Shown: positions 4,017-47,287 of the stretch, in pieces | Position numbering within the stretch: the stretch's first letter is position 1 | Layout of the letters: every line of letters begins with the position of its first letter | NCBI GenBank assembly: GCA_041651095.1 | Contig: JBAZJV010000002.1 | Coordinates: forward strand, 43,621-107,620 | DNA from: Patescibacteria group bacterium | GTDB lineage: Bacteria; Patescibacteriota; Patescibacteriia; Patescibacteriales; UBA12465 | DNA length: 64,000 nt | Reading direction: 5' to 3' | The notes under the pieces: model-generated | Told to the model about the DNA's origin: nothing | Databases searched by the model: none | Seen by the model: only the letters and a program-made list of their open reading frames with translations | Position numbers and translations under genes: made by a program

Positions 4017-4199
4017 ATCAACTATAAACCCGCATTCGACATGCGGGTTTATGATAAATATACGCTTAAAGAAGGAAGCGCACTTGAGAGACGAAAACTA
4101 CTAGCAAACCCTAGAAGCAGAATAGTACTAAAAAAAGAAGCTAACACTGTTAGAAAAATAAAAAACATCGGTATTAGTCAGATGTTTTTTAATAGATAG
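4017..4199 (+). pseudogene. 3' gene remnant, possibly the C-terminal part of a large serine recombinase (copy 1)
   Basis: The open frame reads INYKPAFDMRVYDKYTLKEGSALERRKLLANPRSRIVLKKEANTVRK... It has no plausible N-terminus and is about 75% nt-identical over about 90 nt to the fragment at 8135-8230. The ...LLxxLxSxIxLKDKKL pattern recalls recombinase C-termini from memory only. Confidence 0.3.
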
Positions 4200-4403
4200 A
4201 TTCTTTTACATCTTTTCACTGGAAATATCAAAAAATCTCTCAAAGAAGCTAGTTAACTTATTTAAAACGCTTTCTCTCTTTTTCCCATAACCACCAGGAG
4301 AAAATCATGATGGTTTATTTACCATAATTTTTGTTATTGCCGTCACTGTTGTAGTAACACTGCCATCACTAAAAGCATTTTTTATAAATGTATAAGTGGC
4401 ATC

Positions 4404-4919: not shown

Positions 4920-4920
4920 A

Positions 4921-5367
4921 TTATTTTATATTATTTTTTCCTATTTCTTTGCTTGCAATATTATGAACTGTCTTTGCTTTTGTTTTTATGTCGTCTGGTA
5001 ATTCAATTAACATAATCTCTATATCTAATGGGGTTTTACCAGTCGATATTCTTTTAAAAAAATTATAAAAATTTTTATTAGTTAAAACTAATATTTTTCT
5101 TTTTGCTTTAACTAACGACAACATGTATATGTCAAAATAGATTGATTTTACCGATCCTACTCCCGCCCTGCCATTTTCTCTAGTCTGATGTGACTTGATA
5201 TCCCCGATAATATTTTTATCTAGCGACACTATATCAAATTTATGGCTTCCCCCAGTCACTAATTTCAATTTTATGTCTTTATTATAAAACTCACATCCTA
5301 TTTTTTCTCTCAGTCTCTCCCTGACATAGGGCTCAATTAGCTGCGATAATATTTTTGTATTTGCCAT
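4921..5367 (-). CDS. Small PD-(D/E)xK-like (restriction-endonuclease-fold) protein, third gene of the operon
   Basis: 148 aa. It has N-terminal helix acidic residues (EPYVRERLRE), then KFDIVS (D45) and IIGDIKS (D56-x-K58), which is the classical D...(D/E)xK spacing. It lies 6 nt downstream of the helicase stop. Confidence 0.4.
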   Translation of the reverse strand: MANTKILSQLIEPYVRERLREKIGCEFYNKDIKLKLVTGGSHKFDIVSLDKNIIGDIKSHQTRENGRAGVGSVKSIYFDIYMLSLVKAKRKILVLTNKNFYNFFKRISTGKTPLDIEIMLIELPDDIKTKAKTVHNIASKEIGKNNIK

Positions 5368-5373
5368 ATATTT

Positions 5374-8005: not shown

Positions 8006-8056
8006 TTATAGCTATATTCGAATTTAAAAATTTAGTATCAAAATAAAATTTTCTAA

Positions 8057-8264
8057 AGGGATTACCCCCCCTCCCAGGATATTCGAGTGTTTTATATAAA
8101 TATCCAACAAACGACCCGTCATAATGAAAACGCCAAACCCGCAGTCGATATGCTGGTTTATGCTAAATATGTACTTAAAGAAGGATATGCCCTTGAAAAA
8201 CGGGAGTTGCTGGCTAATTTGAAAAAATAGGATTATATTAAAAGATAAAAAGTTGTTATATTGA
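8057..8264 (+). pseudogene. 3' gene remnant, possibly a large serine recombinase C-terminus, frameshifted (copy 2)
   Basis: The frame reads ...ENAKPAVDMLVYAKYVLKEGYALEKRELLANLKK* (stop at 8228-8230) and continues in the +1 frame as RIILKDKKLLY* (8229-8264). It is homologous to 4026-4130. It overlaps the 3' end of the convergent R-M gene. Confidence 0.3.
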
Positions 8265-10580
8265 AGATGAGTACGGCAGAGATTTTATATAATTTTCAAT
8301 AAATTTCCAATCAGGGTCTTTACCATTTGCTGGCAACTTTATACTCCTTTCTTTTAAGCGAGTTTGACTAGCTTTTCTTCCATAATTATACCTATAACGT
8401 TCCAAATTAATAATGGTAGCTAAAAATAAACCGATATATTTATTCATCTTAAATTTTGGACACAATTTTTCTACGTGATCGCTGGCGGAAAAATTAAACG
8501 GTTGATAAGCACAAAATCCCAAAACAGCACTATCAACAGTTAATATGTTGCCAGCTTCTGTATGATAATTATAAAAACCAGCAATGCCATTATTCGTTGC
8601 CTGAGTAGTCACAAATGGAAATTCCCCTTCACCAAATTCTTCTAAATCAAGAATTGATGTTGTTTTACTGCCAGTAATATTAAAAAGTTTGTCCAACGAA
8701 AAACTCTTCCATTTTTTTACTTCCAATTCGTACTTATTTTTGTTAACCGGATTAGAAAGAATATTATTTGTCATTTGATTAGACAGAAGAAACGAACAAT
8801 ATTCTACTAATGTTTTTTCAAAATCTTTTCTAACTAGACCAGAATAGTCTGTTTCCATATATGCCTCCGGGCACCATTCATCTTTTGCTGTTATCTCTTT
8901 AGTTACACTGAATCCAGGAATAGTTTCTCTGTTTTGATAATTAACTATCCACTTGTTTTTTATTTTTCTTTCAAATTCTTCATATAAATCAATCCGCCCT
9001 TTAGTTTTTCTTTTTACAAAACCATCTTTCTTATAATAGCCAAAATAAGTCTTTTTCCCTGCTGGATGTGGTCTTTTGGCCGTAAAAACCATTACACAGG
9101 CAACAACTCCGACATCAGAATTAAAAAATAATTCGTCAGGCATGCTAAACACCGCCTCAAGGGTGTGCTGACTTAAAAGTTTCTTTTTCCATTCATATAT
9201 ACGACCAGATTGAGCTAATGCGCTTTGCATTGGCACAATAGCAACGCATTTACCGCCCTGCACCAAACATTCCAAGTTATCAAATACGAACTCCAACTCT
9301 TCAGTATCCTTTTTCTTGTCAGATTTATAAGGGGGGTTAAGTAATCCGGCAGTTGGTTTAAATTTTTTTACTTTTTTGATTATCTCACCATCAAGACAGC
9401 TACCATTTAAAATATTACTCTTCCCGTCTTGATGAATAAACATGTTGCTACAAGCCAAAACAAATATATGCGCCTGATACTCAACACCCACTAGCTGATT
9501 CTTTTTTATATTTTTTATTTTACGCAAATCATCTTTCGCATCTTCTATCATTATACTCATTGCCGAAACAAGAAATCCGCCAGTTCCAACACAATTATCA
9601 TATACAATGGAATCTTTATTAACCTCGGCAATTCGCGCCATAAACTCGGTAATATGAAGAGGTGTCAAAACTATCCCGAGCCCTTTATCACTATTAGCAT
9701 AACGCAAAAATTCTATATACAATTGGCCTAAAACATCAATGTACTTATGTGTTTTAATAAAATCTTTAATATTTTCATTTATGCTAGAAATTATATCTCT
9801 TAATACATTTGCCTTTTTTGACAAGGACGTATCTGTTTTGATAAAGGCGAGTCTGCCACTTATAACATCTAATTTTTCCTTCTGAATCCCACCGTTTTTA
9901 AACTCCATATCAACAGTATCAACCAAATATTTGGCCAAGTCCTCTGGCTTACTATAATTTTTATAAGATGCTTCAAATGCTTTGTTTTCTAACGCTATCA
10001 AAATACAAGCTATCAATAAAGCTCTTTCACTTTCTACTATTTTATGACTATGTAGCGTGTCATTTAAATCCTTGGAAAATATTATCAATTTATCGTAATC
10101 CTGTCTGAATTTTTCTGGACTCTTTATGTAGCCAGTTAGATACTCTTGTGAAGATAAAAATTTATCAGAAAACTTTGGCAATGCTTTTTGCTCACCTTTT
10201 AATTGTAAAAAGTGGGAAATTTTAAGTTCTTTTTTATTTTCCCCACTGACAGCTATAGACAATACATCATATTCCCTCGATAGATATGCTGAGTATAATA
10301 ATGCACCGTCAACAGCGTAATCTCTGTATTGATCTAGGGTGGAGCTTTCGTGTTTTTTAATATCCGCTTTGCATTCTACCAATATCAATAAATCGGGGTT
10401 ATTTCTAAATTGCATTATAAATTCTGGATGACCAGCTCCATTGCCAGCTTTAGACGCTGTTGATAATAATTTTTTAATTTTAGGATTGTCTGATGATTGC
10501 TCTTCAATAATTAATTCTGCTGTGTATTTCTTAAAATGTTCCCTGGTTATATTTTCAGTTTTTCTCTCATTTTTAGCCAT
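8256..10580 (-). CDS. Single-chain restriction-modification enzyme (Type IIG-like): N-terminal PD-ExK nuclease + gamma-class N6-adenine methyltransferase + C-terminal specificity (TRD) domain
   Basis: 774 aa. It has NNPDLLILVECKAD (PD...ExK), YDNCVGTGGFL (SAM motif I) and GLLNPPY (motif IV NPPY). The C-terminal 170 aa resemble an HsdS TRD (LDKLFNITGSKTT...FPFVTTQATNNGIAGFYN...RLKERSIKLP). Confidence 0.75.
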   Translation of the reverse strand: MAKNERKTENITREHFKKYTAELIIEEQSSDNPKIKKLLSTASKAGNGAGHPEFIMQFRNNPDLLILVECKADIKKHESSTLDQYRDYAVDGALLYSAYLSREYDVLSIAVSGENKKELKISHFLQLKGEQKALPKFSDKFLSSQEYLTGYIKSPEKFRQDYDKLIIFSKDLNDTLHSHKIVESERALLIACILIALENKAFEASYKNYSKPEDLAKYLVDTVDMEFKNGGIQKEKLDVISGRLAFIKTDTSLSKKANVLRDIISSINENIKDFIKTHKYIDVLGQLYIEFLRYANSDKGLGIVLTPLHITEFMARIAEVNKDSIVYDNCVGTGGFLVSAMSIMIEDAKDDLRKIKNIKKNQLVGVEYQAHIFVLACSNMFIHQDGKSNILNGSCLDGEIIKKVKKFKPTAGLLNPPYKSDKKKDTEELEFVFDNLECLVQGGKCVAIVPMQSALAQSGRIYEWKKKLLSQHTLEAVFSMPDELFFNSDVGVVACVMVFTAKRPHPAGKKTYFGYYKKDGFVKRKTKGRIDLYEEFERKIKNKWIVNYQNRETIPGFSVTKEITAKDEWCPEAYMETDYSGLVRKDFEKTLVEYCSFLLSNQMTNNILSNPVNKNKYELEVKKWKSFSLDKLFNITGSKTTSILDLEEFGEGEFPFVTTQATNNGIAGFYNYHTEAGNILTVDSAVLGFCAYQPFNFSASDHVEKLCPKFKMNKYIGLFLATIINLERYRYNYGRKASQTRLKERSIKLPANGKDPDWKFIENYIKSLPYSSSI

Positions 10581-18872: not shown

Positions 18873-20414
18873 TTAATATTTAGATTTTAACACCTTAATG
18901 ATACCCCGAGTGGCATCAACTTCCACCAGATCTCCGTCGTGCAAAGCCTTGACCGCAATTTTGGCTCCGATAATACAAGGCTTACCTAACTCCCGGGCTA
19001 CAATCGCCGCATGCGAAGTAATGCCGCCTTCATCAGTAACAATTGCTATGGCGCGGCGCATCGCCGGCACAAAATCAGGTGTAGTCATAGCCGTTACCAA
19101 AATATCACCTGATTTAAGCTTGCCAATCTCCGTGGATAGCCGGCAAATCTTGACCGCGCCGCGTACCAGGCCGGGTGAGGCAGTCTGGCCCTTGATTTCT
19201 CTGGCTCGTTCGACTTTAGCTAAAAGATGGTTAACTCTGATGAAACGTTTAGCCGCCCGACCGGTTAACCAATAATATCGCTTATTCCTGATAATTAGGA
19301 CATAGCCTTTCTCTCTGGCAATCAGATCTTGCCTCAGCCGGCCGTCTAAACGGCCAGACCGTAGGGCATCGGCAATTTCTATTTCGCTCAAATAATCCAG
19401 ATATTTATCGGCTAATTGTAGACGGCGACCAATTTCCCGCTTAACCACCAATTGCAAAATCGGATGACTTCTGGTCTGAGTCACTTTTTTTAATTCCTGG
19501 AGATAAGAAAGTTTGCGCAGAGCATAAGTCAAGTTCTTCAGACCGACCGGTAAAGACAACGGCTGAAAAGCTTGATCGCGTCTCTTCATCCTGACCCTGA
19601 TTTCTTGTCGCTTGGCCTGACGTAGCCGAGCCGGATCATTTTTCAACATTACATTTAGCCGTCGCAAAAAGTCTTTCTCTCCCCAGACGATTCCGGTGCG
19701 GTAACCGAAAGGCAGAGATTCATAAGATCGAAGATGACGGAGCCAGGCGGCACGGAGACCAGGCGGCAAATTTTTAGCCGCTGACAACTTTTTTATTTGC
19801 AATTTTTGGAGCTTAATAGCGATATTTAAAAGCGACGATTCTTCCTTAAAGTTCTCGCTCTGGTATTCTAATGGTTCAATAATGGTCGCCAGCAATTGTT
19901 CAGTGTCTAACTCGGGATAATTGGCTGCCAAATAATGCCTCAATTTTTCTTCGGCAGCAATGGCTCCCAACCACCAGGCCGGCGTATTTTTAAGATGATA
20001 ATCTAGATATTTCCGAACATAAAGCAGATAATGTTCGGCGATCTCCTGGTTGCTTAATGAACCGATAATCTGCTGGCCTAGGTTGCGACTTATATAATCA
20101 TATAAACCATTAGTCTGGCCTTCCGACCAACGGATAAGCCGATCTAAATAACCGGGTTGACGCTGGAATTTTTCTACCAACCGGGAACTGAATTCAAGAT
20201 AGTCGGCTTGGGATTCCATCGCCACCTCCAGATCTTTCTCGTCGCTAACATCTATCACCGATTTCAGACCGGCGCCATAGATATGTCTACATTTCCGGCC
20301 GGTCGCATAAGCAACAGTATAAACCGACGGGAAAAGAGCGATCGTATCTTTCGGGCGCGCGCGCCAAGCCTGCAGGGATAATCTTTGACAATATTTTTTA
20401 GTTAGATCGGGCAT
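18873..20414 (-). CDS. PEP-utilizing-enzyme swivel (phosphohistidine) domain protein with an uncharacterised N-terminal region
   Basis: 513 aa. The C-terminal 90 aa read GDILVTAMTTPDFVPAMRRAIAIVTDEGGITSHAAIVARELGKPCIIG, the PEP_mobile motif with the catalytic His. I saw no ATP-grasp or PEP-binding TIM motifs. Confidence 0.7.
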   Translation of the reverse strand: MPDLTKKYCQRLSLQAWRARPKDTIALFPSVYTVAYATGRKCRHIYGAGLKSVIDVSDEKDLEVAMESQADYLEFSSRLVEKFQRQPGYLDRLIRWSEGQTNGLYDYISRNLGQQIIGSLSNQEIAEHYLLYVRKYLDYHLKNTPAWWLGAIAAEEKLRHYLAANYPELDTEQLLATIIEPLEYQSENFKEESSLLNIAIKLQKLQIKKLSAAKNLPPGLRAAWLRHLRSYESLPFGYRTGIVWGEKDFLRRLNVMLKNDPARLRQAKRQEIRVRMKRRDQAFQPLSLPVGLKNLTYALRKLSYLQELKKVTQTRSHPILQLVVKREIGRRLQLADKYLDYLSEIEIADALRSGRLDGRLRQDLIAREKGYVLIIRNKRYYWLTGRAAKRFIRVNHLLAKVERAREIKGQTASPGLVRGAVKICRLSTEIGKLKSGDILVTAMTTPDFVPAMRRAIAIVTDEGGITSHAAIVARELGKPCIIGAKIAVKALHDGDLVEVDATRGIIKVLKSKY

Positions 20415-22763: not shown

Positions 22764-24122
22764 ATGAAGAAAGGCGTTTCGCTATTCATTCCCCTAATTT
22801 TAATAGCGGCCAGTCTGGCTTTAACTCTGTCCGAACCGGGTATTTATCGTACGGCTTTCGCCCAAACCGGACAGAATGCCGGCTGGGAGCAGGAACGACT
22901 GCAGTTACAACAGCAGCTTAAAGAAATAGAACAAGAAATCGCCGCCGCTGAAGCCTCTTTAGGTAAAGTCCGGTTCCAAAAAAATACCTTAGCCAATAAG
23001 ATCCAGCAATTGAAAATCAGGCAGGCCTCCCTGACTCTAAAAATCAAGGCTAGCTCCTTGCAACTGGAGCAATCTACTATCAGCCTGCTGCAAATCCAGG
23101 CTCAAATAGACCAGAATGCCGCGCAGGTTACCGCCGCCCAGGATCAGCTGGCCGCGGTCTTAAACAAGCTGTGGCAAGAGCGGCAGGTTTCGCTCTTCAA
23201 CCGGCTGCTGACGGCCGACAGTCTGGCCGGCTTCTTCAATGGCATGCATGATTTGGAAAATGTCAGCCGGGGCATCGCGGCCATGAGCCGGAAATTGCAA
23301 GACGAAAAAGCGGATTTGGAAAATAACCGGCAGTCCTTAGCCGAAGAGCAGCAGGCGCAAGCCAGTTTTTTCAACATCATTTCCCTGCAGAATTCCGAAC
23401 TGACGGCTAACCTCCAGGACCAAAATGATTTATTGCGGCAAACCAAGGGCCAGGAAGCTAATTACCAATCCCTGATCAAACAGAATCAAGCAACGGCTAA
23501 CGCTATCCGCGGCCGCATCTACAGCTTAATCGGCACCGCCCAACAAATTAATTTCGGCGAAGCCGTGCAAATCGCCACCTGGGCCTCTAGCCAGACCGGC
23601 GTCCGGCCGGCTTTCCTGCTGGCTATTCTGACCCAGGAATCAAATCTGGGCCGCAATGTCGGAACTTGCAACCGGGCCGGCGATCCGCCCAGCAAAAGTT
23701 GGCGCGTAGTGATGAAGCCGGAGCGCGATCAGGAGCCGTTCAAAAAAATAACCGGTGAGTTAGGTAAGAATATCGACACCACGCCGGTCTCCTGTCCGAT
23801 GCGCGATAAGAACGGCGATCAAGTCGGCTGGGGCGGCGCCATGGGCCCGGCCCAATTCATTCCCTCCACCTGGCTAGGCTATCGCGATAAGGTCAAGGCG
23901 ATTACCGGCCAAGCTGCCAATCCCTGGGATATCCGCGATGCCTTTTTGGCGGCCGCCATCAAGCTCAAAGCCGACGGCGGAGCCACGCCGAGCGGCGAAT
24001 GGGCGGCGGCGATGCGCTATTTCTCTGGCTCGGCCAATACCGCCTACCGTTTCTACGGCGACAACGTCGTCGCCATGGCAGATAAATACCAAAGCGATAT
24101 CGATGAGTTGAATAAAAAATAG
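22764..24122 (+). CDS. Secreted coiled-coil protein with a C-terminal lytic transglycosylase (SLT-like) domain
   Basis: 452 aa with a signal/TM N-terminus and a long Gln/Leu-rich coiled coil. It has LLAILTQESNLG (catalytic Glu-Ser) and GAMGPAQFIPSTW. Confidence 0.7.
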   Translation: MKKGVSLFIPLILIAASLALTLSEPGIYRTAFAQTGQNAGWEQERLQLQQQLKEIEQEIAAAEASLGKVRFQKNTLANKIQQLKIRQASLTLKIKASSLQLEQSTISLLQIQAQIDQNAAQVTAAQDQLAAVLNKLWQERQVSLFNRLLTADSLAGFFNGMHDLENVSRGIAAMSRKLQDEKADLENNRQSLAEEQQAQASFFNIISLQNSELTANLQDQNDLLRQTKGQEANYQSLIKQNQATANAIRGRIYSLIGTAQQINFGEAVQIATWASSQTGVRPAFLLAILTQESNLGRNVGTCNRAGDPPSKSWRVVMKPERDQEPFKKITGELGKNIDTTPVSCPMRDKNGDQVGWGGAMGPAQFIPSTWLGYRDKVKAITGQAANPWDIRDAFLAAAIKLKADGGATPSGEWAAAMRYFSGSANTAYRFYGDNVVAMADKYQSDIDELNKK

Positions 24123-32668: not shown

Positions 32669-34264
32669 TTAACGCCGTTTCGGCGTCCACCAAAAACCCA
32701 TATATTTGCCGAACATCAGGCGGATTTGAGCCTCCAAACACGGGACCGATCCGAAAATGATGATCGTCACCGGCACGGCCAGCCATTCCAGGCTCATCAG
32801 GATCTTTTTCCAGAATGTATATTTGGCCGGCTTTTTCGGCAACAGCAGGGCGGAAATGACCGCCGACAAGATCAAACCGATCATCGCGACGTTCATCAGA
32901 TTTTGGGTGATTGAGGGCAGATTGCCGGATAAGACCGTGGAGTTAAAACGATCGCCGCCCAAAAGCATCGGCAGCCAGCCGATGACGGCGATGATCAGAG
33001 CATTGGTGGCCCAGGCGTTAAAGCCGTAAATCTGAATCAGGATGTGCCCGATGATGCGCCTTTTGTCCAGGTCCGGTTCATGCCAGCGCTTGCCGGCGTT
33101 GAATAAGAGATAGGGGATGTTTTCGCCGCCCCAAGCCCAGCGCCTTTGCTGCTTATAAAGATTTTTAGCGGTCTTCCAAAGGCTTTCATCGTGGGTAACG
33201 TCCATGGATAGCTCGAAATAGATCGGTTCCACCCGATAATGGCCGCGGTAATGCATCAAGCAATGCCAGAAGATCCGGGAATCTTCCGAAACGTTCTTGG
33301 TCGACCAGAAACCGATATCCAAGAGAGCCCGCCAAGTCATGGAATGGGAAGAATAGGTCACCAGGCTCTCCTGCCTGATCTGCATGATCATCTGCCAGAA
33401 GGTGTTGGACGAAGCAGCGACGCGGGAAAAGAACGGCGCCTCCCAGATATTATTATGGTAGACCGGCACCGGCTGGTAGCTGGTGCGATAAGGGTCGGGG
33501 ACGGTCAGGAACTTATAGGCCAGGGCGAAAAAATAACCCGGCCGAACCACGGTATCGATATCGAAAACGCTGACTAAGATCTTGTCATAATCCAGTTTTT
33601 CCCGATCAATGATTTCTTCCTTGACTATCCCGGCCGACCAGGCCTGATTCGCGCCCTTGCCCTTCAATTCGCCGGGTATGGTATCGGAGTGGACGGTAAC
33701 GATGAAATAGCCGAATTTAGCGCCGAATTCCTGCCTGATCGTTTCCGCCTTAGCCTTGGCGGCTTCGCCGGCCCGCTCTTCTATCGCCAACGCGACAATC
33801 ATGCGGTCGGTCGGAAAACCGTCCGCGACCAAAGAAGCGACGCAGGTCCGGAGGATTTCAACGCCTTCGTGGACGTTAGGTAAAATGATGAGTTGCCATA
33901 AATCGCCGAATGAGACTCCTCGCCGCGCCAGGGCGGTCGGCGCGAGCGAAGATAAGTCAACCCGGCCGTCGGATAATTCTTCGCATTTCTGTCGCCAATC
34001 CGTCTTCAGGCCGGCTTGCAGACGGTAATAGGAAGTGATTAAAAAAATGGCCATATAAATGACCAGTAACAGCCAATAGACGTCGAAAGCGATGATAAAA
34101 TAAGCAACGAGCACCGGTTGGAAATAAGACAAGACGGCCAGGACAACCAGGAGCGATAAGGATAAGAAGCCCGGAAAGATTTCCAACAGACGGTAAATCA
34201 GGCGATCGCGACCGGCAAGATCGGTCGCCTTGCCGATTTTCAAATAATTAGTGGTTTGATCCAT
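32669..34264 (-). CDS. Processive family 2 glycosyltransferase (cellulose/chitin-synthase-like), integral membrane
   Basis: 531 aa with N- and C-terminal TM helices. It has VFDIDT (DxD), VSEDSRIF (ED) and KQQRRWAWG (QxxRW). Confidence 0.7.
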   Translation of the reverse strand: MDQTTNYLKIGKATDLAGRDRLIYRLLEIFPGFLSLSLLVVLAVLSYFQPVLVAYFIIAFDVYWLLLVIYMAIFLITSYYRLQAGLKTDWRQKCEELSDGRVDLSSLAPTALARRGVSFGDLWQLIILPNVHEGVEILRTCVASLVADGFPTDRMIVALAIEERAGEAAKAKAETIRQEFGAKFGYFIVTVHSDTIPGELKGKGANQAWSAGIVKEEIIDREKLDYDKILVSVFDIDTVVRPGYFFALAYKFLTVPDPYRTSYQPVPVYHNNIWEAPFFSRVAASSNTFWQMIMQIRQESLVTYSSHSMTWRALLDIGFWSTKNVSEDSRIFWHCLMHYRGHYRVEPIYFELSMDVTHDESLWKTAKNLYKQQRRWAWGGENIPYLLFNAGKRWHEPDLDKRRIIGHILIQIYGFNAWATNALIIAVIGWLPMLLGGDRFNSTVLSGNLPSITQNLMNVAMIGLILSAVISALLLPKKPAKYTFWKKILMSLEWLAVPVTIIIFGSVPCLEAQIRLMFGKYMGFWWTPKRR

Positions 34265-34267
34265 AAT

Positions 34268-34840
34268 TTAAACAATACCTCTCCGTTTTAGCTCAAAAAA
34301 ACAATCGGCGCAAGCCTTGACATCATAAATAGCGTCATGCGCCTCGGCAAAACCCTTAGCGAATAAGCAATTATACAGTTCCGTCAAATTCGGCCACTTG
34401 TAGCTGCCGCGGCCGTTGGAGATCCGGCAATACTGGGCGCTGCTCTTCATCGTGCAGATCTTGTCGGCAGACGGCAAGGGGTTGGCCAGGTTTTCCCGCA
34501 GCAGCTCGGCGCCGACGATCTTCTCGTCAAAATCGATATTATGGGCGACCAGATGCGCCGCGCTCCCGGCGTCAGCCAAGAAATGCTCCAAGGCGGAACG
34601 CAGGGCGACGCCTTCGGCCAGCGCTCTTTCCTGGGAAATCCGGTGGATCTTGGTCGCCTCCGGCGGAATTACGAAGCCGTCCGGGCGAATGATATAGCTC
34701 TGGCTTTCCCAATGGTTGCCGTCGGCGTCATACAGGCTCCAGGCGATCTGGACGATGCGGGGCCAATTCAAAAAATCATCAAGCGGCGCTTGATAATTCC
34801 GGGGCAAGCCGGTGGTTTCCGTATCAAAAAATAAATACAT
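34268..34840 (-). CDS. DEDDh 3'-5' exonuclease (DnaQ/epsilon-like)
   Basis: 190 aa with FFDTETTG (Exo I), VAHNIDFDEKI (Exo II) and HDAIYDVKA (Exo III, H-x4-D). Confidence 0.8.
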   Translation of the reverse strand: MYLFFDTETTGLPRNYQAPLDDFLNWPRIVQIAWSLYDADGNHWESQSYIIRPDGFVIPPEATKIHRISQERALAEGVALRSALEHFLADAGSAAHLVAHNIDFDEKIVGAELLRENLANPLPSADKICTMKSSAQYCRISNGRGSYKWPNLTELYNCLFAKGFAEAHDAIYDVKACADCFFELKRRGIV

Positions 34841-34844
34841 AAAG

Positions 34845-36749
34845 CTAAAAACTGTTATTGGTGATAATGACCTCTTCCCCTTCCTTCAATTCTTTTTCCT
34901 CGTAGGTTTGGGATTGGCCGGGCGTTTCCGTCGGCCGGAGCGGCGGTTTGAGCTTGATTTCCCGGCCGCGAAAATCCCGCGGCGCAACGCGGTTCAAATC
35001 GCTCAAAGAAATGGTCGGGGTCGCCGGGCTGGCCGGCTGAGCCAATACTGTCCGCCGTTCCTGGTCTTTGGCTTGTTTGCGCGCTTCTAGCTCCAGTTTC
35101 TTTTCTTCCCGCTTTCGGCTCAGGCAGTCACGGCAATAAACCGGCCGGATGCCGTCAGGCTGAAAAACAGTCATGGTTTCCCGGCCGCAACTGCTGCAAA
35201 TCGCCGGATAACCGTTCCTTGCGCCGGCGGCTGGCGCGGTCTTAGGCGCCGGACTAAACGGACGCGGTCTGGGCTGAGAGCTGGCCGCGGGAACGGAATA
35301 ACCAGGCGCGGCCGGACGAGAAGCCGCGGCCGGATAATCAATAGCGGCCGCTGGCTGATTCGCGGCCGGGCGATACCCGGGAGCGGCGGCCGGACGGTTC
35401 TGATCGGCGGCGGGAGCGACTTTCGCCGGTCTGGCCGGCGCGGCCGGCATGGCCTCGCCGGGAGTCAAACCGCCGTTATCATCATGCCAGCTCATTATCT
35501 TCTCTTCCACCGAGGCCCGGTCCGAAGCGTATTTCTCGCGGGAATACTGAATGACTTTTTCGACATTACCGGTCCGTTCCTCTTCCCGAAGCGGCGGCAA
35601 GCCGGCGGCGGAAAACGGCGAAGAAGAAATGCCATCGATCATCAATTTCAGATACATCTCGTATTTCGGCAGATTGACCAGGTCTTCTTCCGTAAAAGTC
35701 GGCGTGAATTCCTTGACCAGTTCTTCCGCGTCGGCGGCGCCGACCCGGAACACGACCATCGTGCCGACGTTGCCGAAGACCGCCGGCTTGACCTTCTCGC
35801 TCAGCTGTTCGATATACTGGTGCGCCAAAATCAGGTTCAAGCGGTATTTGCGAGCCTCTGATAAGATGTTGGCGAAGCTGTCCGTGGAAAAATTCTGGAA
35901 TTCGTCGATATAAAGATAAAAATCCCGACGTTCCTTTTCCGGCACGTCTACCCGGCTCATGGCCGCCAGCTGGATCTTGGTGATCATCATCGCGCCTAAA
36001 AGCGCCGAATTATCCTCGCCGATGCGGCCCTTGGACAAGTTCATGATGATGATTTTGCCGTTGTCCATGATTTCCCGGATGTCAATGGCGGACTTCACCT
36101 GGCCGACGATATTGCGCATCAAGGAATTGGACAGGAACTGACCGACCTTGTTCTGGATAGGCGAGACCGCTTCGGAGGCGAACTTATCGGCATAGCTGGA
36201 AAATTCTTTCTCCCAAAACGCTTTGACGACCGGGTCTTTAATGTTGGAAACTACCCGCTTGCGGTAATTCTTGTCGGAGAGCATACGCACGACGCCCATG
36301 AGCGTGGAGCCGGGAAAATCCAAAATGGCCAGAATAGCGTTACGCAAGATATATTCCAGGCGCGGCCCCCAAGAATCCGCCCACAGCTTCTGGAAAACGC
36401 CGATCAGGCCGGAGGCGACCAGATGCCTGAGATGCGGCTCTACCTGTTCGACGACGTTAAAGGCGATCGGATAATTGATGTCCGAAGGGTTGAAATAAAC
36501 GACATCGTTGATGCGCTCGTTCGGGATGAATTCGATGACTTTTTCTGCCAGGTCGCCGTGCGGATCGACGACGGCCACGCCGTGGCCGGCCCGAATGTCG
36601 TCCACGATCATATTTTCCAGAATAGTGGACTTACCCATGCCAGTTTTGCCAATCAAATACATATGGCGGCGCCGGTCGTCAGTCTTAATACCGAATCTCT
36701 TGGATTCGTTGCGGTAGGTTGTCTGGGCAAAAACCGCGATGTCTTTCAT
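34845..36749 (-). CDS. TraD/VirD4/HerA-like P-loop NTPase with a Pro/Ala-rich linker and a C-terminal CxxC...CxxC zinc ribbon
   Basis: It has GKTGMGKST (Walker A), FYLYIDEFQNF (Walker B) and RKYRLNLILAHQYIEQL. The linker is low-complexity (PAAPARPAKVAPAADQNRPAAAPGYRPAANQPAAA...). It ends with CSSCGRETMTVFQPDGIRPVYCRDC. I start it at the ATG at 36749 (MKDIAVF) to avoid overlap with nrdG. Confidence 0.55.
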   Translation of the reverse strand: MKDIAVFAQTTYRNESKRFGIKTDDRRRHMYLIGKTGMGKSTILENMIVDDIRAGHGVAVVDPHGDLAEKVIEFIPNERINDVVYFNPSDINYPIAFNVVEQVEPHLRHLVASGLIGVFQKLWADSWGPRLEYILRNAILAILDFPGSTLMGVVRMLSDKNYRKRVVSNIKDPVVKAFWEKEFSSYADKFASEAVSPIQNKVGQFLSNSLMRNIVGQVKSAIDIREIMDNGKIIIMNLSKGRIGEDNSALLGAMMITKIQLAAMSRVDVPEKERRDFYLYIDEFQNFSTDSFANILSEARKYRLNLILAHQYIEQLSEKVKPAVFGNVGTMVVFRVGAADAEELVKEFTPTFTEEDLVNLPKYEMYLKLMIDGISSSPFSAAGLPPLREEERTGNVEKVIQYSREKYASDRASVEEKIMSWHDDNGGLTPGEAMPAAPARPAKVAPAADQNRPAAAPGYRPAANQPAAAIDYPAAASRPAAPGYSVPAASSQPRPRPFSPAPKTAPAAGARNGYPAICSSCGRETMTVFQPDGIRPVYCRDCLSRKREEKKLELEARKQAKDQERRTVLAQPASPATPTISLSDLNRVAPRDFRGREIKLKPPLRPTETPGQSQTYEEKELKEGEEVIITNNSF

Positions 36750-36759
36750 AAAAAAACGC

Positions 36760-37482
36760 TTAACCGCGGACCTCGCATAATTGGACATAGCCGCGGCCAA
36801 TAGCCGCGAATTCAGCCATCTCCCTGCTGGTATACGCTTGGCGGGCCTGATATTTCCGGTCCACCAGATCGGTATCGGACTTGAAATTCTGCAAATACCA
36901 CTTCTTGGCGCGCTTGATCATCTTTCCCATCTTGGCAAAATCTTCCTTCGCCAAGAGGCTGGGCACGACCGTGGTCCGAAATTCATAAGGCAGGCCGCTG
37001 GACATTATGATTTTAACACTTTTTTGCAAATTTTCCCAGTTAACCGGCACGCCGACGACAGCCTCGTATTTATCCGCCGGCGCCTTCAGGTCCATAGCGA
37101 CATAATCAATCAGACGGTCAGCGATAAGCTGCCGCAACATTCGCGGATTAGTGCCGTTAGTATCCAGCTTGACGAGATAGCCGATGTCCTTGATCTGCCT
37201 GATGAAATCCGGCAGATCCGGATGCAGGGTCGGCTCGCCGCCGGTAATGACTACTCCTTCCAAACGGCCGAAGCGTTCCGCTAAAAAAAGAAAAAGGTTC
37301 TGCGGGGAAAGCGGGGAAAAACCTTTTTCTTTTTTATTTTCGTCCTTTCCCTGACGGGGCAGGACAAGCAAGGGGTTATAGCAGAAGTGGCATCGGAAGT
37401 TGCAACCTTGGGTAAAGATGATGGCCGCTAGGTGGTCGGGGTAGTCTAGAAGAGTTAGCTTCTCTAAACCACCGATAATCAT
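36760..37482 (-). CDS. nrdG: Anaerobic ribonucleoside-triphosphate reductase activating protein (radical SAM)
   Basis: 240 aa with GCNFRCHFCYNP (CxxxCxxC) and GVVITGGEP, directly downstream of nrdD. Confidence 0.85.
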   Translation of the reverse strand: MIIGGLEKLTLLDYPDHLAAIIFTQGCNFRCHFCYNPLLVLPRQGKDENKKEKGFSPLSPQNLFLFLAERFGRLEGVVITGGEPTLHPDLPDFIRQIKDIGYLVKLDTNGTNPRMLRQLIADRLIDYVAMDLKAPADKYEAVVGVPVNWENLQKSVKIIMSSGLPYEFRTTVVPSLLAKEDFAKMGKMIKRAKKWYLQNFKSDTDLVDRKYQARQAYTSREMAEFAAIGRGYVQLCEVRG

Positions 37483-37496
37483 AAAATTAACTGCGC

Positions 37497-37634
37497 TTAG
37501 TTGTTAGACTGGTAAGTCTTGCGATCGACGTATTCGCTTTGCTTGCCGAGATTCCAGTTCTTGGTCGGCGTCAGCCAGCCGACGACGCGGCTGTAGACCA
37601 GGCATTCCTGCCGTGAAGTCTTGATCGGGCTCAT
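37497..37634 (-). CDS. 45-aa ORF carrying the NrdD C-terminal glycyl-radical motif, separate from the nrdD body
   Basis: MSPIKTSRQECLVYSRVVGWLTPTKNWNLGKQSEYVDRKTYQSNN contains the class III RNR glycyl-radical loop pattern R-[VI]-x-G-[YW] followed by W-N-x-G-K-x-x-E. It lies 38 nt after the nrdD stop, in a different frame, and 14 nt before nrdG. Confidence 0.6.
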   Translation of the reverse strand: MSPIKTSRQECLVYSRVVGWLTPTKNWNLGKQSEYVDRKTYQSNN

Positions 37635-37672
37635 ATTTTTACATTATAAATAATAAACGATTAAATTACAAA

Positions 37673-39751
37673 TTAACTGGCCGCTTGGCCGTCTGCCGCG
37701 GTTTGGCCGGCGTGGCTGGCCTCCGGCACTTCTTCGTGATAGCCGATTTCCTCGTCGCATTTCGGGCAATACTTATGCTCGCCAGACAGATAGCCGTGCT
37801 TGGGACAGACGGAAAAAGTCGGAGTAATCGTGAAATAAGGCAAGCGGTAATTCTCGACGATCTTCTTGACCAGCTTCTTGGCCGTCTCGCCGTCCGGCAA
37901 GCGTTCGCCGATAAAGCCATGCAAAACCGTACCGCCGGTATACTTGATTTGCAGATCGTCCTGCAAATCCAGGGCTGTAAAAATATCGTCGGTGAAACTG
38001 ACGTGCAGATGAGTGGAGTTGGTATAATACGGCGGGACGCCCTGCCCTTGGACCGCTTCAGCATTAGCACAGATGATGCCGGGATACATCTCCTGGTCTT
38101 TCTTGGCAAAACGGTAGGTCGTCCCTTCCGCCGGCGTAGCTTCCAGATTGTACAGGCTATTGGTCTCGTTTTGGAAATCCATCAGCTTCTCCCGCATAAA
38201 ATCCAAGATTTCCGCCGCGAAGGCCCGGCCTTCCGGCGTAGCCAGATCCTTGCCCATCAGGTTAAGCGCCGCTTCGTTCATGCCGTTGATGCCGATGGTG
38301 GAGAAATGATTCTTCCAATATGACCCGAAGCGCTCCTTGATGTCGCTTAAATAGAACATCGAATAAGGATACAGCCGGTCGTTGGTAAATTTCTCGATGA
38401 CCTTACGCTTGATTTCCAAGCTTTCCTTGGCCAGCTCCATCAATTTCAGCAGGCGCGCCTTGAATTCTTCCTTGGTCTTGGACAGGTAACCCAGGCGCGG
38501 CAGGTTAATGGTGACCACGCCGATGGAGCCGGTCAGCGGATTGGCGCCGAACAGGCCGCCGCCGCGCTTGCGGAGTTCCCGGTTATCCAGACGCAAGCGA
38601 CAGCACATGGACCGGGCGTCATCGCGCTTCATATCCGAATTAACGAAATTGGAAAAATAGGGGATCCCGTATTTAGCCGTCATTTCCCAGGCCGGCTTCA
38701 ACGATTCTCGGTCCCAATCGAAATCCTTGTCGATGCAATAGGTCGGAATCGGAAAACCGAAGACTCGGCCGGTAGAATCGCCCTGGATCATCACTTCCGC
38801 GAAAGCCTGGTTGAAGATATCCATTTCCGCCTGGAAATCCTTGTATTTTTGCGATTTGATCTCGCCGCCGATAACCACATTCTCTTCGCCGATCATCGGG
38901 GACGGGGTCACATCCAAGGTTACGTTGGTAAACGGGGTCTGGAAGCCGACGCGCGTCGGCACGTTGATATTGAACATGAATTCCTGCAGGCCCTGTTTGA
39001 CCTCCTTATAGCTTAGCTTGTCATAACGGATGAATGGCGCCAGATAAGTATCAAAGTTGGCGAAGGCCTGGGCGCCGGCCGCTTCGCCCTGCATGGTATA
39101 GAAGAAATTGATAATCTGCCCTAAGGCGCTGCGGAAATGCTTAGGCGGACTGCTTTGCACTTTCTCGTTGACGCCCCTAAAACCGCGCAGCAAGAGGTCC
39201 TTCAGGTCCCAGCCGCAACAATACGGAGCGAGCAGGCCGAGATCATGGATATGAAAATCGCCGTCGACATGGGCCTGGCGGATATTTTCCGGATACATCT
39301 TATTCAGCCAGTAGCGGGCGGATATAGAGGAGGCGATATAATTGTTCAAGCCCTGGACTGAAAAACTCATGTTGCTGTTCTCTTTCAAGCGCCAATCCGC
39401 GCGGCCCAAATAATCTTCCATCAGCTTATTGTCCGAAGTGGCGGCGCCGATGTCGCGCAGCTGGCGATGCTGGTCGCGGTAGAGGATATAAGCCTTGGCG
39501 ACCTTGATCAGCTTGTTGTTAATCAAGACCTCTTCCACGATATCCTGGATCTCTTCGACGGCCGGAATGCTGCTCTTATGAAATTTCTGATTGACCTGCA
39601 TAACCACCTGATCGGTCAGCTTCTTGGCCAGATGATGGTCGTCAAGACCGGCCGCCGTGCCGGCCTTGTAAATGGCTTGGGTAATCTTGGCTTGATTGAA
39701 GTCGACGATTTCGCCGGAACGTTTAATCACTTTGCTGATAGTCTCGGGCAT
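37673..39751 (-). CDS. nrdD: Anaerobic ribonucleoside-triphosphate reductase (class III), large body lacking the glycyl-radical tail
   Basis: 692 aa with an N-terminal ATP-cone (VIKRSGEIVDFNQAKITQAIYKA) and CCRLRLD. The C-terminal Zn site reads CPKHGYLSGEHKYCPKC. The ORF then ends in a low-complexity tail (EEVPEASHAGQTAADGQAAS) without an RVxGY motif. Confidence 0.85.
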   Translation of the reverse strand: MPETISKVIKRSGEIVDFNQAKITQAIYKAGTAAGLDDHHLAKKLTDQVVMQVNQKFHKSSIPAVEEIQDIVEEVLINNKLIKVAKAYILYRDQHRQLRDIGAATSDNKLMEDYLGRADWRLKENSNMSFSVQGLNNYIASSISARYWLNKMYPENIRQAHVDGDFHIHDLGLLAPYCCGWDLKDLLLRGFRGVNEKVQSSPPKHFRSALGQIINFFYTMQGEAAGAQAFANFDTYLAPFIRYDKLSYKEVKQGLQEFMFNINVPTRVGFQTPFTNVTLDVTPSPMIGEENVVIGGEIKSQKYKDFQAEMDIFNQAFAEVMIQGDSTGRVFGFPIPTYCIDKDFDWDRESLKPAWEMTAKYGIPYFSNFVNSDMKRDDARSMCCRLRLDNRELRKRGGGLFGANPLTGSIGVVTINLPRLGYLSKTKEEFKARLLKLMELAKESLEIKRKVIEKFTNDRLYPYSMFYLSDIKERFGSYWKNHFSTIGINGMNEAALNLMGKDLATPEGRAFAAEILDFMREKLMDFQNETNSLYNLEATPAEGTTYRFAKKDQEMYPGIICANAEAVQGQGVPPYYTNSTHLHVSFTDDIFTALDLQDDLQIKYTGGTVLHGFIGERLPDGETAKKLVKKIVENYRLPYFTITPTFSVCPKHGYLSGEHKYCPKCDEEIGYHEEVPEASHAGQTAADGQAAS

Positions 39752-39752: not shown

Positions 39753-40211
39753 TCACTTTTTCTCGTTAATTAATTTATTTAATTCCTTGCGGAACTCATG
39801 AGCATCCTTGAAGGATTCATAAACCGAGGCATAACGGATGTAAGCGACCGGGTCGATTTTTTTCAGGTTTTTCATGACCATCTGGCCGATCTGCCGGGAG
39901 GTGATCTCCGTGCTTTTCAGGCGCTGCAGGTCGCGCTCTATGGAATGGATCAATTTCTTAAAGCGGTCTTCGGTAATCGGCCGTTTTTCACAAGACTTCT
40001 TCAGTCCGTTCACCATCTTATCCCGGCTGTAAGATTCGCGCCGGCCGTCGCGCTTGACGATGACCAGATCCAGAAGCTCAATTTCCTCATAAGTCGAAAA
40101 ACGGAAAGCGCATTTCAAACATTCGCGCCGACGACGGATCGAGAGTCCGTCCGGCGCGACGCGGGAGTCAACCACCTTAGTGTCCGGGAAATAACAGATG
40201 GGACATTTCAT
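39753..40211 (-). CDS. nrdR: Transcriptional repressor NrdR
   Basis: 152 aa with an MKCPICYFPDTKVVDSR...ECLKCAFRFSTYE zinc ribbon plus an ATP-cone. Confidence 0.9.
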   Translation of the reverse strand: MKCPICYFPDTKVVDSRVAPDGLSIRRRRECLKCAFRFSTYEEIELLDLVIVKRDGRRESYSRDKMVNGLKKSCEKRPITEDRFKKLIHSIERDLQRLKSTEITSRQIGQMVMKNLKKIDPVAYIRYASVYESFKDAHEFRKELNKLINEKK

Positions 40212-40218
40212 AGAGAAA

Positions 40219-40234
40219 ACCCTATATTTTGTGG
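40219..40234. promoter_or_regulatory. NrdR box 1
   Basis: ACCCTATATTTTGTGG compared with the palindromic consensus acaCwAnATnTwGtgt. It lies 8 nt upstream of the nrdR start. Confidence 0.6.
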
Positions 40235-40250
40235 CATTTTAAATATTTGG

Positions 40251-40266
40251 CCACTAAATGTTGTAT
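40251..40266. promoter_or_regulatory. NrdR box 2
   Basis: CCACTAAATGTTGTAT. Its centre is 32 bp from box 1, about three helical turns, which is the typical tandem NrdR-box spacing. Confidence 0.5.
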
Positions 40267-40519
40267 TACACTTATATTCTATCAAATTTTTATCTTAGGG
40301 TCAATTTAGCTAATCTTAATACAAATATAAATTTTTTAAGTAGTTATCCACAGAAATTTATCAAAAGCTGATTATAGCCATTGCCCGCCGATCTTGAAAA
40401 GTCAAGGCAGCATAAACATACATTGACAAAAACACCTATTATAATTAATATGATGAAATATAAGTTCGTTTAAAAACAGTAAAAACCCAACATAAACAAC
40501 AATTAAATCAGGAGATGCA

Positions 40520-44953: not shown

Positions 44954-47287
44954 TCATTGATCGTATGCCTGCCGCAAAGCTTGAATGGCCGGCTCAGCCG
45001 GCGCCAGCTGTCCGGCCCGTTCCAGATATATTCGGGCTTGGGGTCGGTCGCCGGTCTCATAATATAAGGCGGCGAGCGCCAGCGACCAGTGATAATCGCC
45101 CGGGTCCCTGGCCAGGCCATGGGCAATATAAGAAATTGCCGCCGCCTGATCGCCGGCCAGATAATAAGCATCGGCGACCTGCTTTAATAATACCAAATCG
45201 TCCGGATTGGCGCGATAAGCCTCCCGGTAATATTTGGCCGCCGCGGCATACCGGCCTTGGAGCTGATAAATGGCGGCCATCTGCCGGTTAAGGAAAGACC
45301 GATAGTCCAGGACGATGCGGCGATGCTCTTCATTCAAGCGGCGATCGCTAGCCTCCGGCAAAACCAGGCCGGCGTGATAGTAATTCAATAAGGCGCGAAG
45401 CTGATCGCCTTCGGCCAGGGCCAGCCCGGCCCGAGCTAAGTAAACCGGCGGCCACTGCGGCGCCAGAGCAACCAGCTGATCCAAGTAATTGCCGGCGGCC
45501 GGATAATCTCGTAAAGCCCGGGCGATCTCCGCTTGCACCAGAAGCTGGCGATAACCAGTTCGGCTCAGGGACCCGCTGATTTCCATTAACTTATTCCTGG
45601 CCGCGTTCTTGACTGCGGCGCCGGCCAGGTCGGGATAAGCCTGGCTCAACTGCTCAGCCAGAAACAGATCGTAAAATTCCTGGTTAGCCGGGTTGACCCG
45701 GAGATCGGTCAGATATCCGTAAATGGTCAGGGCCGTGAAATAATCCTGATCGGCCAGAGCTTTGACAGACTGCTGGAAATAAAAATCAGCGATCAGGGTT
45801 CGCAGACTGCAATTAGCCTGCCAGGCGATGATGATGATCACGACAACGGTGGCCAATAATCGGCCTGAATGGCGGCGCCAGGAACCGCCGGCCGCCGGGA
45901 CGACTGACCGCCCGTCACCGGGCTGCCAAGATAGGACAACCAATAAAGCCAGAAACAGCCAGAAATAGATTTCGCCGGTTAAGATGGAAAAACCGAACAA
46001 TAAGGAAATCAGATAGGCGGCCGCACCGAGGGCCAGGGCTAAAGACAAGGCGGCAGATCGCCGCTGCCGGATATTGCGGCGCGCCAAATAAAAGAAAAAA
46101 CCATACAGGACGGAAAATAGGACTAAACCAAAAATGCCGGTAGTCAACAATATGTCCAGAATCAGATTATGAGCCCGGTCCGCTACTTGGCTGACCTCGC
46201 CGTAGACGCCCCAATCCGGGGCATAGTAACGGATAAATATTTCCTGGCTGTTTTCCAGGCCATAGCCGAATAACGGCCGCTCCGGAATCGTCGCCAAAGC
46301 GGCCAGATAAAAATTCCAGCGGGCGCCGGTCGAACCGTAATTAATATCGACCGCCCGCGACCAGCGCGGTCCGGCCAGCGCCCCGCTGACGACCCAGGCG
46401 ACTAGCGCCAGGAAAATCAAAGCCAAGGCTAACCAGATTTTTCGCCGGTGCGGCCAGCCGACATGGGTGAGCCAATAAAGCAGTCCGGCGGCGGCCACGA
46501 TGAGCGCGGCGATTATTCCGGCGCGGCTGCCGGTCAGCCATAAAGCGATCAGCTGCAAGATAAAAGCCGCGGCCCAAACCGACTTAAGCCAAAAGGAGCG
46601 GCCACGGAAAAACAAATAAGCGCTTAAGGGTAAAACCAGGAGCAGCCAGGAGGCTAGAAAATTCGGCTGGCCGAAAGTGGCGAAGCTGCGCTGCGTCAAA
46701 TACGGCGCTTCCAACCAATATAAGAAATCAATATTCAAAAATTGCAGAACAGCGTAGGCCGACACTGCGCTGCCGGTTATGACGGCCGCGCCCACCAGCC
46801 GCTCGATTTTCTTAGCGACCGCCGATTCAGCGCTCACTTCTTTGACGCCGGCGTCCGGCCGGCCGACCGGCCAGAGGTTAAAACTGAGCAAGACGAACCA
46901 TAAGGCATAAAACAGATAACTAAGCAGCCCTTGCTCACGCGCCGGATTGCCATAAAAACTCTGAGCGATATTCGTCGACCAAATCAGGGTCAAACTTAGG
47001 CCGATAATAAAAACGGCCGGCGGCAGCCAGTATTTTTTTAGCGCGCCGCGTGTCGGCCAAGGTACGGCGGCCGGATAAATGACGGCTTTGAGCAAAGTGA
47101 AGAGCAGAAGCAGCCAAATCAGGATCTGGAACAGCACGAATTTATTCAATTCAAAAACATGGTAAGTCGGCCACCAATAAGCGAACCAGAGCGGGACGGT
47201 GACGATGATCGCCAAATAGCTGGTCTCGATCAAGCCGTTCAGAATGTTTAGCCCGGCAACACCGGCCGATCGGAAAATGAATTTCAT
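44954..47287 (-). CDS. O-antigen-ligase-like (Wzy_C) polytopic membrane protein with a C-terminal TPR domain
   Basis: 777 aa. It has at least 12 TM helices, including an ...ADRAHNLILDILLTTG... loop typical of the O-antigen ligase family. The C-terminal 300 aa form TPR repeats (YYLAGDQAAAISYIAHGLARDPGDYHW...). Confidence 0.6.
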   Translation of the reverse strand: MKFIFRSAGVAGLNILNGLIETSYLAIIVTVPLWFAYWWPTYHVFELNKFVLFQILIWLLLLFTLLKAVIYPAAVPWPTRGALKKYWLPPAVFIIGLSLTLIWSTNIAQSFYGNPAREQGLLSYLFYALWFVLLSFNLWPVGRPDAGVKEVSAESAVAKKIERLVGAAVITGSAVSAYAVLQFLNIDFLYWLEAPYLTQRSFATFGQPNFLASWLLLVLPLSAYLFFRGRSFWLKSVWAAAFILQLIALWLTGSRAGIIAALIVAAAGLLYWLTHVGWPHRRKIWLALALIFLALVAWVVSGALAGPRWSRAVDINYGSTGARWNFYLAALATIPERPLFGYGLENSQEIFIRYYAPDWGVYGEVSQVADRAHNLILDILLTTGIFGLVLFSVLYGFFFYLARRNIRQRRSAALSLALALGAAAYLISLLFGFSILTGEIYFWLFLALLVVLSWQPGDGRSVVPAAGGSWRRHSGRLLATVVVIIIIAWQANCSLRTLIADFYFQQSVKALADQDYFTALTIYGYLTDLRVNPANQEFYDLFLAEQLSQAYPDLAGAAVKNAARNKLMEISGSLSRTGYRQLLVQAEIARALRDYPAAGNYLDQLVALAPQWPPVYLARAGLALAEGDQLRALLNYYHAGLVLPEASDRRLNEEHRRIVLDYRSFLNRQMAAIYQLQGRYAAAAKYYREAYRANPDDLVLLKQVADAYYLAGDQAAAISYIAHGLARDPGDYHWSLALAALYYETGDRPQARIYLERAGQLAPAEPAIQALRQAYDQ

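Follow-up and report, generated by a model that had tools for sequence, protein, structure and literature searches.

Can a class III ribonucleotide reductase (RNR) carry its glycyl radical on a polypeptide other than the catalytic chain? To our knowledge, this radical has always been described on the C-terminus of that chain, NrdD. The question is raised by an nrd locus in a 64,000-nt stretch of a Patescibacteria group bacterium genome (assembly GCA_041651095.1, contig JBAZJV010000002.1, positions 43,621 to 107,620), which we refer to as the window. An initial annotation of the window had proposed that its class III RNR is split, with the radical motif on a separate 45-codon open reading frame (ORF) between nrdD and nrdG, and Pfam matches, reading frames and relatives all confirm this arrangement. 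From the comparative evidence laid out below, we consider it very likely that the two ORFs encode a functional two-polypeptide class III RNR in which the 45-aa peptide is the separate glycyl-radical subunit. The genes are ordered on the minus strand as nrdR, NrdD body, spacer, 45-aa ORF and nrdG, with a gap of 14 nt between the small ORF and nrdG:

40304-40276 (region 40215..40304), minus strand: promoter-like site TTGACC-17-TAGAAT upstream of nrdR, located by consensus scan
within 40215..40304, minus strand: two weak NrdR-box-like palindromes, 3' of the TTGACC-17-TAGAAT site and upstream of nrdR
39753..40211, minus strand: nrdR, first gene of the cluster, encoding a Zn-ribbon and ATP-cone repressor of 152 aa (Pfam Zn_ribbon_NrdR and ATP-cone)
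37673..39751, minus strand: NrdD body, 692 aa (Pfam NRDD positions 1-531 of 562, and ATP-cone)
37635..37672, minus strand: AT-rich spacer, 38 nt, with a sigma-70-like promoter-like site inside
37497..37634, minus strand: 45-aa glycyl-radical ORF (Pfam NRDD positions 530-562 of 562)
36760..37482, minus strand: nrdG, encoding a radical-SAM activase of 240 aa (Pfam Radical_SAM)

Two polypeptides in place of one NrdD

The Pfam family NRDD divides cleanly over the body and the small ORF, with no position missing or duplicated. The body matches this family with an E value of 7.6e-185, and the small ORF does so with an E value of 1.9e-7 and a score of 30.6 bits (gathering score 26.2 bits). The NCBIfam model NF006126 is likewise matched by both parts (body, positions 3-662 of 684, 1036.6 bits against a cut-off of 548; small ORF, positions 648-683), and in the comparison with solved structures the body aligns to residues 98-609 of T. 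maritima NrdD and the small ORF to residues 616-645. The glycyl-radical motif RVxG[YFW] is absent from the body polypeptide, which ends at NRDD position 531 of 562.

Judged by its sequence and predicted fold, the body looks like a functional class III RNR catalytic subunit. It contains the ten-stranded barrel with the radical-receiving finger-loop cysteines Cys383 and Cys384 (SMCCRLRLD); aligned with fused homologs, both occupy invariant columns, and the body keeps all columns that are invariant across fused and split relatives, this pair included. In an AlphaFold model of the body computed with an alignment, the predicted local distance difference test score (pLDDT) exceeds 90 for the greater part of the chain, and Foldseek matched the model to the class III RNRs of P. 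copri, S. thermophilus, T. maritima and T4 (structures 8p2c, 9d3x, 4u3e and 1h7b, with E values of 1e-23 to 1e-33). The C-terminal Zn site named in the initial annotation is present as CPKH...CPKC at body residues 649-665, where metal binding is predicted for a Cys-x2-His...Cys-x2-Cys arrangement, the first pair being Cys/His and not Cys/Cys. The CPKH element (CPKHGY; window 37793-37804, body residues 651-654) takes the forms CPVHGY or CPIHGY in many relatives. Right after CPKC stands DEEIGY (window 37742-37759, body residues 666-671), which is near-invariant in split bodies. A variable, acidic, low-complexity tail comes after the metal site, and the body terminates in ...VCPKHGYLSGEHKYCPKCDEEIGYHEEVPEASHAGQTAADGQAAS followed by the stop codon.

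The small ORF, MSPIKTSRQECLVYSRVVGWLTPTKNWNLGKQSEYVDRKTYQSNN, carries the motif RVVGW, with Gly19 encoded at 37578-37580, and the tail WNxGKxxE...R. Gly19 aligns with the radical glycine of both T. maritima and P. copri NrdD (the Gly711 loop in the latter), and the loop reads G-W...TP in the peptide as against G-Y...RP in canonical fused NrdD. Only about 10 residues stand N-terminal of the conserved core. For the window ORF and eight other stand-alone peptides, PF13597 (NRDD) was the sole Pfam family matched at E values up to 0.01; PF01228 (Gly_radical) gave no match, and a model made specifically for the small protein is absent from both Pfam and NCBIfam. The ORF had been described as unannotated, which does not hold everywhere, as an identical 45-aa protein is present in NCBI on a contig of 172,824 bp under the title 'MAG: anaerobic ribonucleoside-triphosphate reductase [Patescibacteria group bacterium]'.

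The radical domain of P. copri NrdD leads from a Zn site through a buried Gly711 loop to a surface tail (PMC11226230). Given this order, the cut in the window falls in the linker between these elements, leaving the metal site on the body and the glycine loop and tail on the small protein. This linker is short and variable in fused relatives.

Among the other parts of the locus, NrdG matches the NCBIfam model TIGR02495 (NrdG2) with 212.7 bits (cut-off 131). The NrdR boxes of the initial annotation stand as a resemblance upstream of nrdR and not as consensus matches above chance: the scan with the NrdR-box consensus gave matches no better than chance, and the match at 40218-40233, with 3 mismatches, is by itself not above chance. 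An Rfam scan of the window found three tRNAs only, so that the junction of the two ORFs holds neither an intron nor any other known RNA element.

Conservation of the split among relatives

Our first homology search with the small ORF returned 17 relatives, all of them stand-alone proteins of 34-49 aa that are 70-96% identical to the one in the window, with Y14, R16, V17, G19, W20, T22, P23, W27, N28, G30, K31, E34 and R38 invariant. The contigs that carry them come from NCBI, JGI, ENA and Logan assemblies and show the same order of nrdR, NrdD body, small ORF and nrdG. Their spacers measure 30, 42, 51 and 53 nt (38 nt in the window), the frame relations between the two ORFs vary and the G+C content of the locus ranges from 0.35 to 0.54. 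None of the best 120 homologs of the body (83-92% identical) contains R[VI]xG[YWF]; these proteins have 671-703 aa (large insertions bring some to about 1010-1040 aa), and all stop shortly after CPKCDEEIGY. A search with a profile of the small protein yielded 2,801 proteins at E values up to 1e-3, the best 120 of which are all stand-alone (44-69 aa).

When one genome per GTDB species was searched, 127 genomes contained a relative, mostly labelled Patescibacteria or Falkowbacteria and including the complete chromosomes CP066698.1 and OW818634.1. The counts that follow rest on the 80 loci, each from a different species, that were kept from these genomes. A fused nrdD was found at none of them, and the gene order is invariant: nrdG lies directly 3' of the small ORF at all 80, the body lies directly 5' of it at 78 (the remaining two are cut by contig ends) and nrdR lies upstream of the body at 73 (the others are again cut by contig ends). 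The spacers are 11-191 nt long and frame offsets of 0, 1 and 2 all occur, while the G+C content of the locus across relatives runs from about 0.30 to 0.54. The initial annotation had allowed that relatives might all carry fused genes; the result is the opposite.

The small ORF is also conserved in the manner of a protein-coding gene under constraint. Across 83 distinct small ORFs, the mean proportion of synonymous differences (pS) is 0.81, which is saturated, and that of nonsynonymous differences (pN) is 0.12, giving a pN/pS of 0.149. For the unsaturated pairs, the median ratio of nonsynonymous to synonymous substitution rates (dN/dS) is 0.057, indicating strong purifying selection, and mismatch frequencies at the three codon positions are 0.14, 0.12 and 0.54. 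The conserved split and this selection support the lean of the initial annotation towards a functional operon with a separate radical polypeptide.

The spacer of the window has a G+C content of 11%, compared with about 51% for the locus. It contains a -35 element TTGTAA (37671-37666) followed after 17 nt by a -10 element TATAAT (37648-37643) and, 8 nt further on, by the ATG of the small ORF, with 10 of 12 positions matching the promoter consensus. This promoter-like site is conserved, as TTGTA[AT]-N16-18-TATAAT occurs within 120 nt 5' of the small ORF in 40 of the 83 distinct relatives, whereas shuffled sequences gave 0.13 on average and never more than 2. The small gene and nrdG might thus be transcribable independently of nrdR-nrdD. 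Distances from the -10 element to the ATG in relatives cluster at 8-21 nt and 55-64 nt. Downstream of their promoter-like site, loci with the longer spacers (L054, L055, L060, L062, L064-L066 and L068; -10 to ATG 55-64 nt) have an inverted repeat, such as CCAACCGCTTCT...AGAAGTAGCTGGTAG in L066, which might form a regulatory hairpin in the small gene's leader. Several large ORFs elsewhere in the window start 8-12 nt after a TATAAT (18876-20414, 22764-24119 and 44957-47287), and leaderless or short-leader mRNAs are plausible in this genome.

The extreme C-termini of the bodies differ among groups of relatives. In one subclade (L022, L027, L031, L040, L045, L058, L073, L078 and L010), the long tail of the body closes with the conserved motif ER(N/D)IIxA(I/M)A; at these loci the spacer is longer and AAGGAG serves the small ORF as a Shine-Dalgarno sequence. 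The bodies of a further large group end in ...VEE(V/I)RAANQ. Such conserved ends suggest a role in docking. The bodies of the family are often 1,000-1,880 aa long through one to three insertions (L007 1878-4970, L013 1845-4916, L076, L086 and L092; proteins P0244-P0393), and some of the enlarged ones have Intein_splicing and LAGLIDADG matches in Pfam, the gene being an intein hotspot.

The first gene 3' of nrdG in the window (34845-36800) encodes an ATPase of the TraG/TrwB type that has a zinc finger at its C-terminus; an exonuclease resembling RNase T is encoded at 34268-34840 and a glycosyltransferase at 32669-34264. These neighbours (32669-36800) were found again at L001, L007 and L013. Farther away, 6401-10580 is probably a small defence island, with one gene for an AAA/TOPRIM nuclease of the OLD family (6401-8005) and another for a fused N6-methylase/specificity-domain protein (8256-10580).

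Other split lineages and orphan copies in viral contigs

Many of the 150 representatives of the broader NrdD family are without a terminal radical motif, and three of their loci were looked up. At L174 (3001-6801), a 1,175-aa body with a different C-terminal type is followed 90 nt downstream by a 60-aa ORF that has a Shine-Dalgarno sequence and reads ...CEVYSRVVGYFRPVQNWNPGKQQEF.... At L176 (144-3334), a 43-aa ORF that carries a precomputed Pfam NRDD match lies 14 nt downstream of a 1,014-aa body. At L175, the body (1,067 aa; 3001-6204) has its 50-aa ORF (446-598; ...CEIWTRVMGYHRPVSSFNIGKKGEF...) 2.4 kb upstream, with unrelated small genes between the two; this radical gene sits in a phage-like stretch of small genes without assigned function. 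The small proteins of L174 and L175 give above-threshold matches to the last ~30 positions of the NRDD profile, and all three loci have GY-type loops and C-terminal types different from those of the window's clade.

Copies of the small module were also found apart from any reductase gene. One homolog (L012) lies on a contig without NrdD and without Pfam-annotated neighbours. When IMG/VR was scanned with the profile of the small protein, 161 contigs matched, from which 80 loci (L094-L173) were kept with flanks of up to 6 kb on each side. Neither an NrdD body nor NrdG was detected in the fetched flanks of 75 of these 80 loci; at 47, the flanks reach at least 3 kb on both sides. The 75 orphan loci hold 62 distinct sequences, with the motif in an ORF of at most 100 aa at 63 loci and a longest ORF of 225 aa, and three forms can be told apart. 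Some are minimal peptides (40-60 aa; for example at 6001-6126 in both L098 and L099), among them GW...TP forms that resemble that of the window, other copies are N-terminally extended, and a third form of 84-130 aa has two CxxC pairs and covers NRDD positions 510-562, which is the whole zinc-ribbon radical domain (for example L124 5731-6123).

The genes around the orphan copies are mostly uncharacterised, and PHROGs contains no family for the small proteins. Collagen-like tail-fibre genes adjoin the small gene in L099 and L103, and an RtcB ligase and a homing endonuclease are encoded near it in L094. A tblastn search of GenBank phages with the 45-aa peptide gave one weak match, in an unannotated record. 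The orphan copies show the peptide being treated as what appears, from its distribution, to be a portable functional unit.

Explanations for the split, its parallels and its meaning

A stop codon ahead of an essential motif resembles damage when a single genome is considered alone, and the 45-codon ORF could then be the decaying remnant of a pseudogene or the result of an assembly or sequencing indel. The same architecture in independent NCBI, JGI, ENA and Logan assemblies and in 80 species, the strong purifying selection on the small ORF and a spacer that is an AT-rich insert with a conserved motif of its own, not a 1-2-nt indel, make such a lesion improbable in the extreme, and the comparative data (no motif in 120 bodies, no fused gene at 80 loci, dN/dS of 0.057) refute it. 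If the gene is intact, the two ORFs might still be joined, by frameshifting, stop-codon readthrough, bypassing, an RNA intron or protein trans-splicing. T4 nrdD has a group I intron and introns and inteins are frequent in phage nrd genes (PMC3653736), and both ORFs share a frame in some relatives. However, they are in different frames here (38 mod 3 = 2) and the body frame, if read onward, meets more stop codons; across relatives, spacers of 11-191 nt bring all three frame offsets, with stops in every in-frame spacer that is read through. Rfam has no RNA family at the locus, the variable low-complexity body tail and the short N-terminus of the peptide offer no room for a split intein and no intein blocks, and the small gene of L175 lies 2.4 kb upstream of its body. 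The variation of spacers and frames, the stops, the Rfam result and the short termini thus rule out these routes, any of which we regard as very improbable. The shared split, the variable spacers and the purifying selection together argue against pseudogene, assembly error and recoding alike.

In the two-polypeptide enzyme that we favour, the small protein would be translated separately, probably by way of an internal promoter shared with nrdG. NrdG would place the radical on Gly19, and the loop would enter the barrel non-covalently beside Cys383/384 and start nucleotide reduction as in fused enzymes. An untethered radical piece could in principle be activated off the enzyme, and once oxygen has cleaved the peptide or its radical is lost, a fresh copy might take its place without the 692-aa body having to be made anew, which would build the spare-part principle of GrcA/YfiD into the enzyme itself.

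Several points weigh against this proposal. It is an inference that the peptide is translated separately, joins the body in trans, is activated by NrdG and brings any benefit through exchange. The conservation of the small ORF speaks for a function but not for an adaptive benefit; it cannot tell a neutral from an adaptive split, and the arrangement could be a fixed accident as in other split RNRs. No Shine-Dalgarno sequence precedes the small ORF in the window, but this is typical for the genome: a Shine-Dalgarno-like core is found before only 5 of the 36 large ORFs of the window (at least 200 aa), so that a missing ribosome-binding site is normal here. The search for a second RNR, which was negative, covered the 64-kb window. 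Many of the orphan contigs are viral by their IMG/VR label alone, and a body gene might lie beyond the flanks of up to 6 kb. Finally, the AlphaFold runs gave no placement of the peptide inside the barrel. A single-sequence run of body plus peptide produced an unusable model (mean pLDDT 35), and a second input, composed of fused homologs and body-only rows, gave a pLDDT below 50 for residues 672-730. This failure is probably due to a poor alignment, in which MAFFT seems to have put the G-Y of DEEIGY in the body tail (IGY) onto the radical V-G-Y of the fused enzymes. DEEIGY may serve as a contact site for the peptide, or this likeness may be coincidental.

A further possibility is that the split works but is neutral, a case of 'genes in pieces' in which an insertion (perhaps an nrdG promoter or the remnant of a mobile element) cut the linker and the two pieces assemble permanently and act as a fused NrdD, with no exchange or repair. 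Working split RNRs are known, both as NrdJa/NrdJb (PMC9669993) and among split phage nrd genes (PMC3653736). Moreover, the NrdD of this clade is a hotspot for mobile insertions, with bodies of about 1010-1040 aa and representatives of up to 1,879 aa, the bodies of other split lineages have intein and LAGLIDADG matches in Pfam, and the cut lies in a short linker that varies in fused relatives. Nevertheless, at least four NrdD-locus groups are split, with GW as well as GY loops and with the small gene either downstream or 2.4 kb upstream of the body, and half of the loci have a promoter-like site just before the small gene. Most telling are the dozens of viral contigs with the small module only; the sole sense that we can give them is that the peptide is limiting or replaceable. 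We therefore hold a neutral split to be rather doubtful, and the viral orphan copies and the internal promoter-like site make us lean towards exchange over mere tolerance. It is quite possible, and we propose it tentatively, that NrdD-type radical peptides are in general exchangeable 'radical cartridges'. The cartridge would then be an obligate, separately expressed and replaceable subunit in whole bacterial lineages, namely the Falkowbacteria-like Patescibacteria and three or more further NrdD-locus groups, and the many phages that carry nothing but the cartridge, as a 40-60 aa loop or an 84-130 aa zinc-ribbon domain, would re-arm or boost the reductase of their host during infection.

The two-polypeptide enzyme has much in common with fused NrdD/NrdG systems such as those of T4, T. 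maritima and P. copri (NF006126/TIGR02487), including the ATP-cone, the barrel, the finger-loop cysteines, the metal site, the RVxG(Y/W) loop, the WNxGK tail, an adjacent NrdG and NrdR control, and its predicted fold matches theirs. It differs from them in the cut between metal site and glycine loop, in the variable tail gained after DEEIGY and in the promoter-like element in the gap.

GrcA/YfiD of E. coli and Y06I of T4 are spare parts that re-arm oxygen-cleaved pyruvate formate-lyase, and a June 2026 review of glycyl radical enzymes lists spare parts for formate lyases only, those of other enzymes being 'yet to be determined' (PMC13450708). Like GrcA/YfiD, the peptide is a small stand-alone protein with a glycyl-radical loop that would use the activase of its parent enzyme and insert into a large body, and phage-borne versions exist in both cases (T4 Y06I for pyruvate formate-lyase, the viral-contig orphans here). 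In contrast to GrcA, however, it is homologous to the C-terminus of NrdD (PF13597) and not to the PF01228 type of pyruvate formate-lyase, it is far smaller (45 aa) and without a folded radical domain, and at the cellular locus it is the only radical loop of its enzyme, an obligate subunit and not a backup, since the body is loopless. The GrcA analogy drawn in the initial annotation thus holds as a possible mode of working, but neither as membership of the same family nor as the role of a spare for an intact enzyme.

Split catalytic subunits have been described in other RNR classes, namely class II NrdJa/NrdJb of Pseudomonas aeruginosa (PMC9669993) and the class Ia NrdA of Aeromonas phage Aeh1, a case of genes in pieces, and splits in phage RNRs arise via introns, inteins or endonucleases (PMC3653736). 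As at our locus, these catalytic subunits are encoded by two neighbouring ORFs with a C-terminal functional element on the second; the products of the known pairs have to assemble, as the two parts would here. Their second pieces, however, are large folded domains without a radical. A homing endonuclease does not lie between the pieces here, because spacers of 11-191 nt are too short to hold one. Class I NrdB is a di-metal, ferritin-like protein from which the radical is transferred over a long distance. It resembles the peptide conceptually, in that a stable radical is kept on a polypeptide apart from the barrel, but the two are not homologous and the 45-aa peptide would put its radical directly into the active site.

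Class III RNR is thought to stand near the ancestral ribonucleotide reductase. In the open-access literature, we found no description of a split class III RNR in Patescibacteria or of NrdD-type autonomous radical proteins, and, outside pyruvate formate-lyase, the peptide appears to be the first radical module of the spare-part kind. If the two-polypeptide reading is true, the radical loop can work in trans, and the review's question on spare parts beyond formate lyases would have an answer (PMC13450708). In fused enzymes, the mobility of the radical domain makes activase access and loop movement hard to study (PMC11226230); a detached loop would provide a simple system for the access of the activase to the glycine and for the entry of the loop into the barrel and its exit. 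For the Patescibacteria themselves, the NrdD bodies of many genomes could be mistaken for truncated or non-functional proteins wherever gene calling misses their partner ORF (fewer than 50 aa), and the orphan copies on viral contigs would be auxiliary metabolic genes of a new and very small kind.

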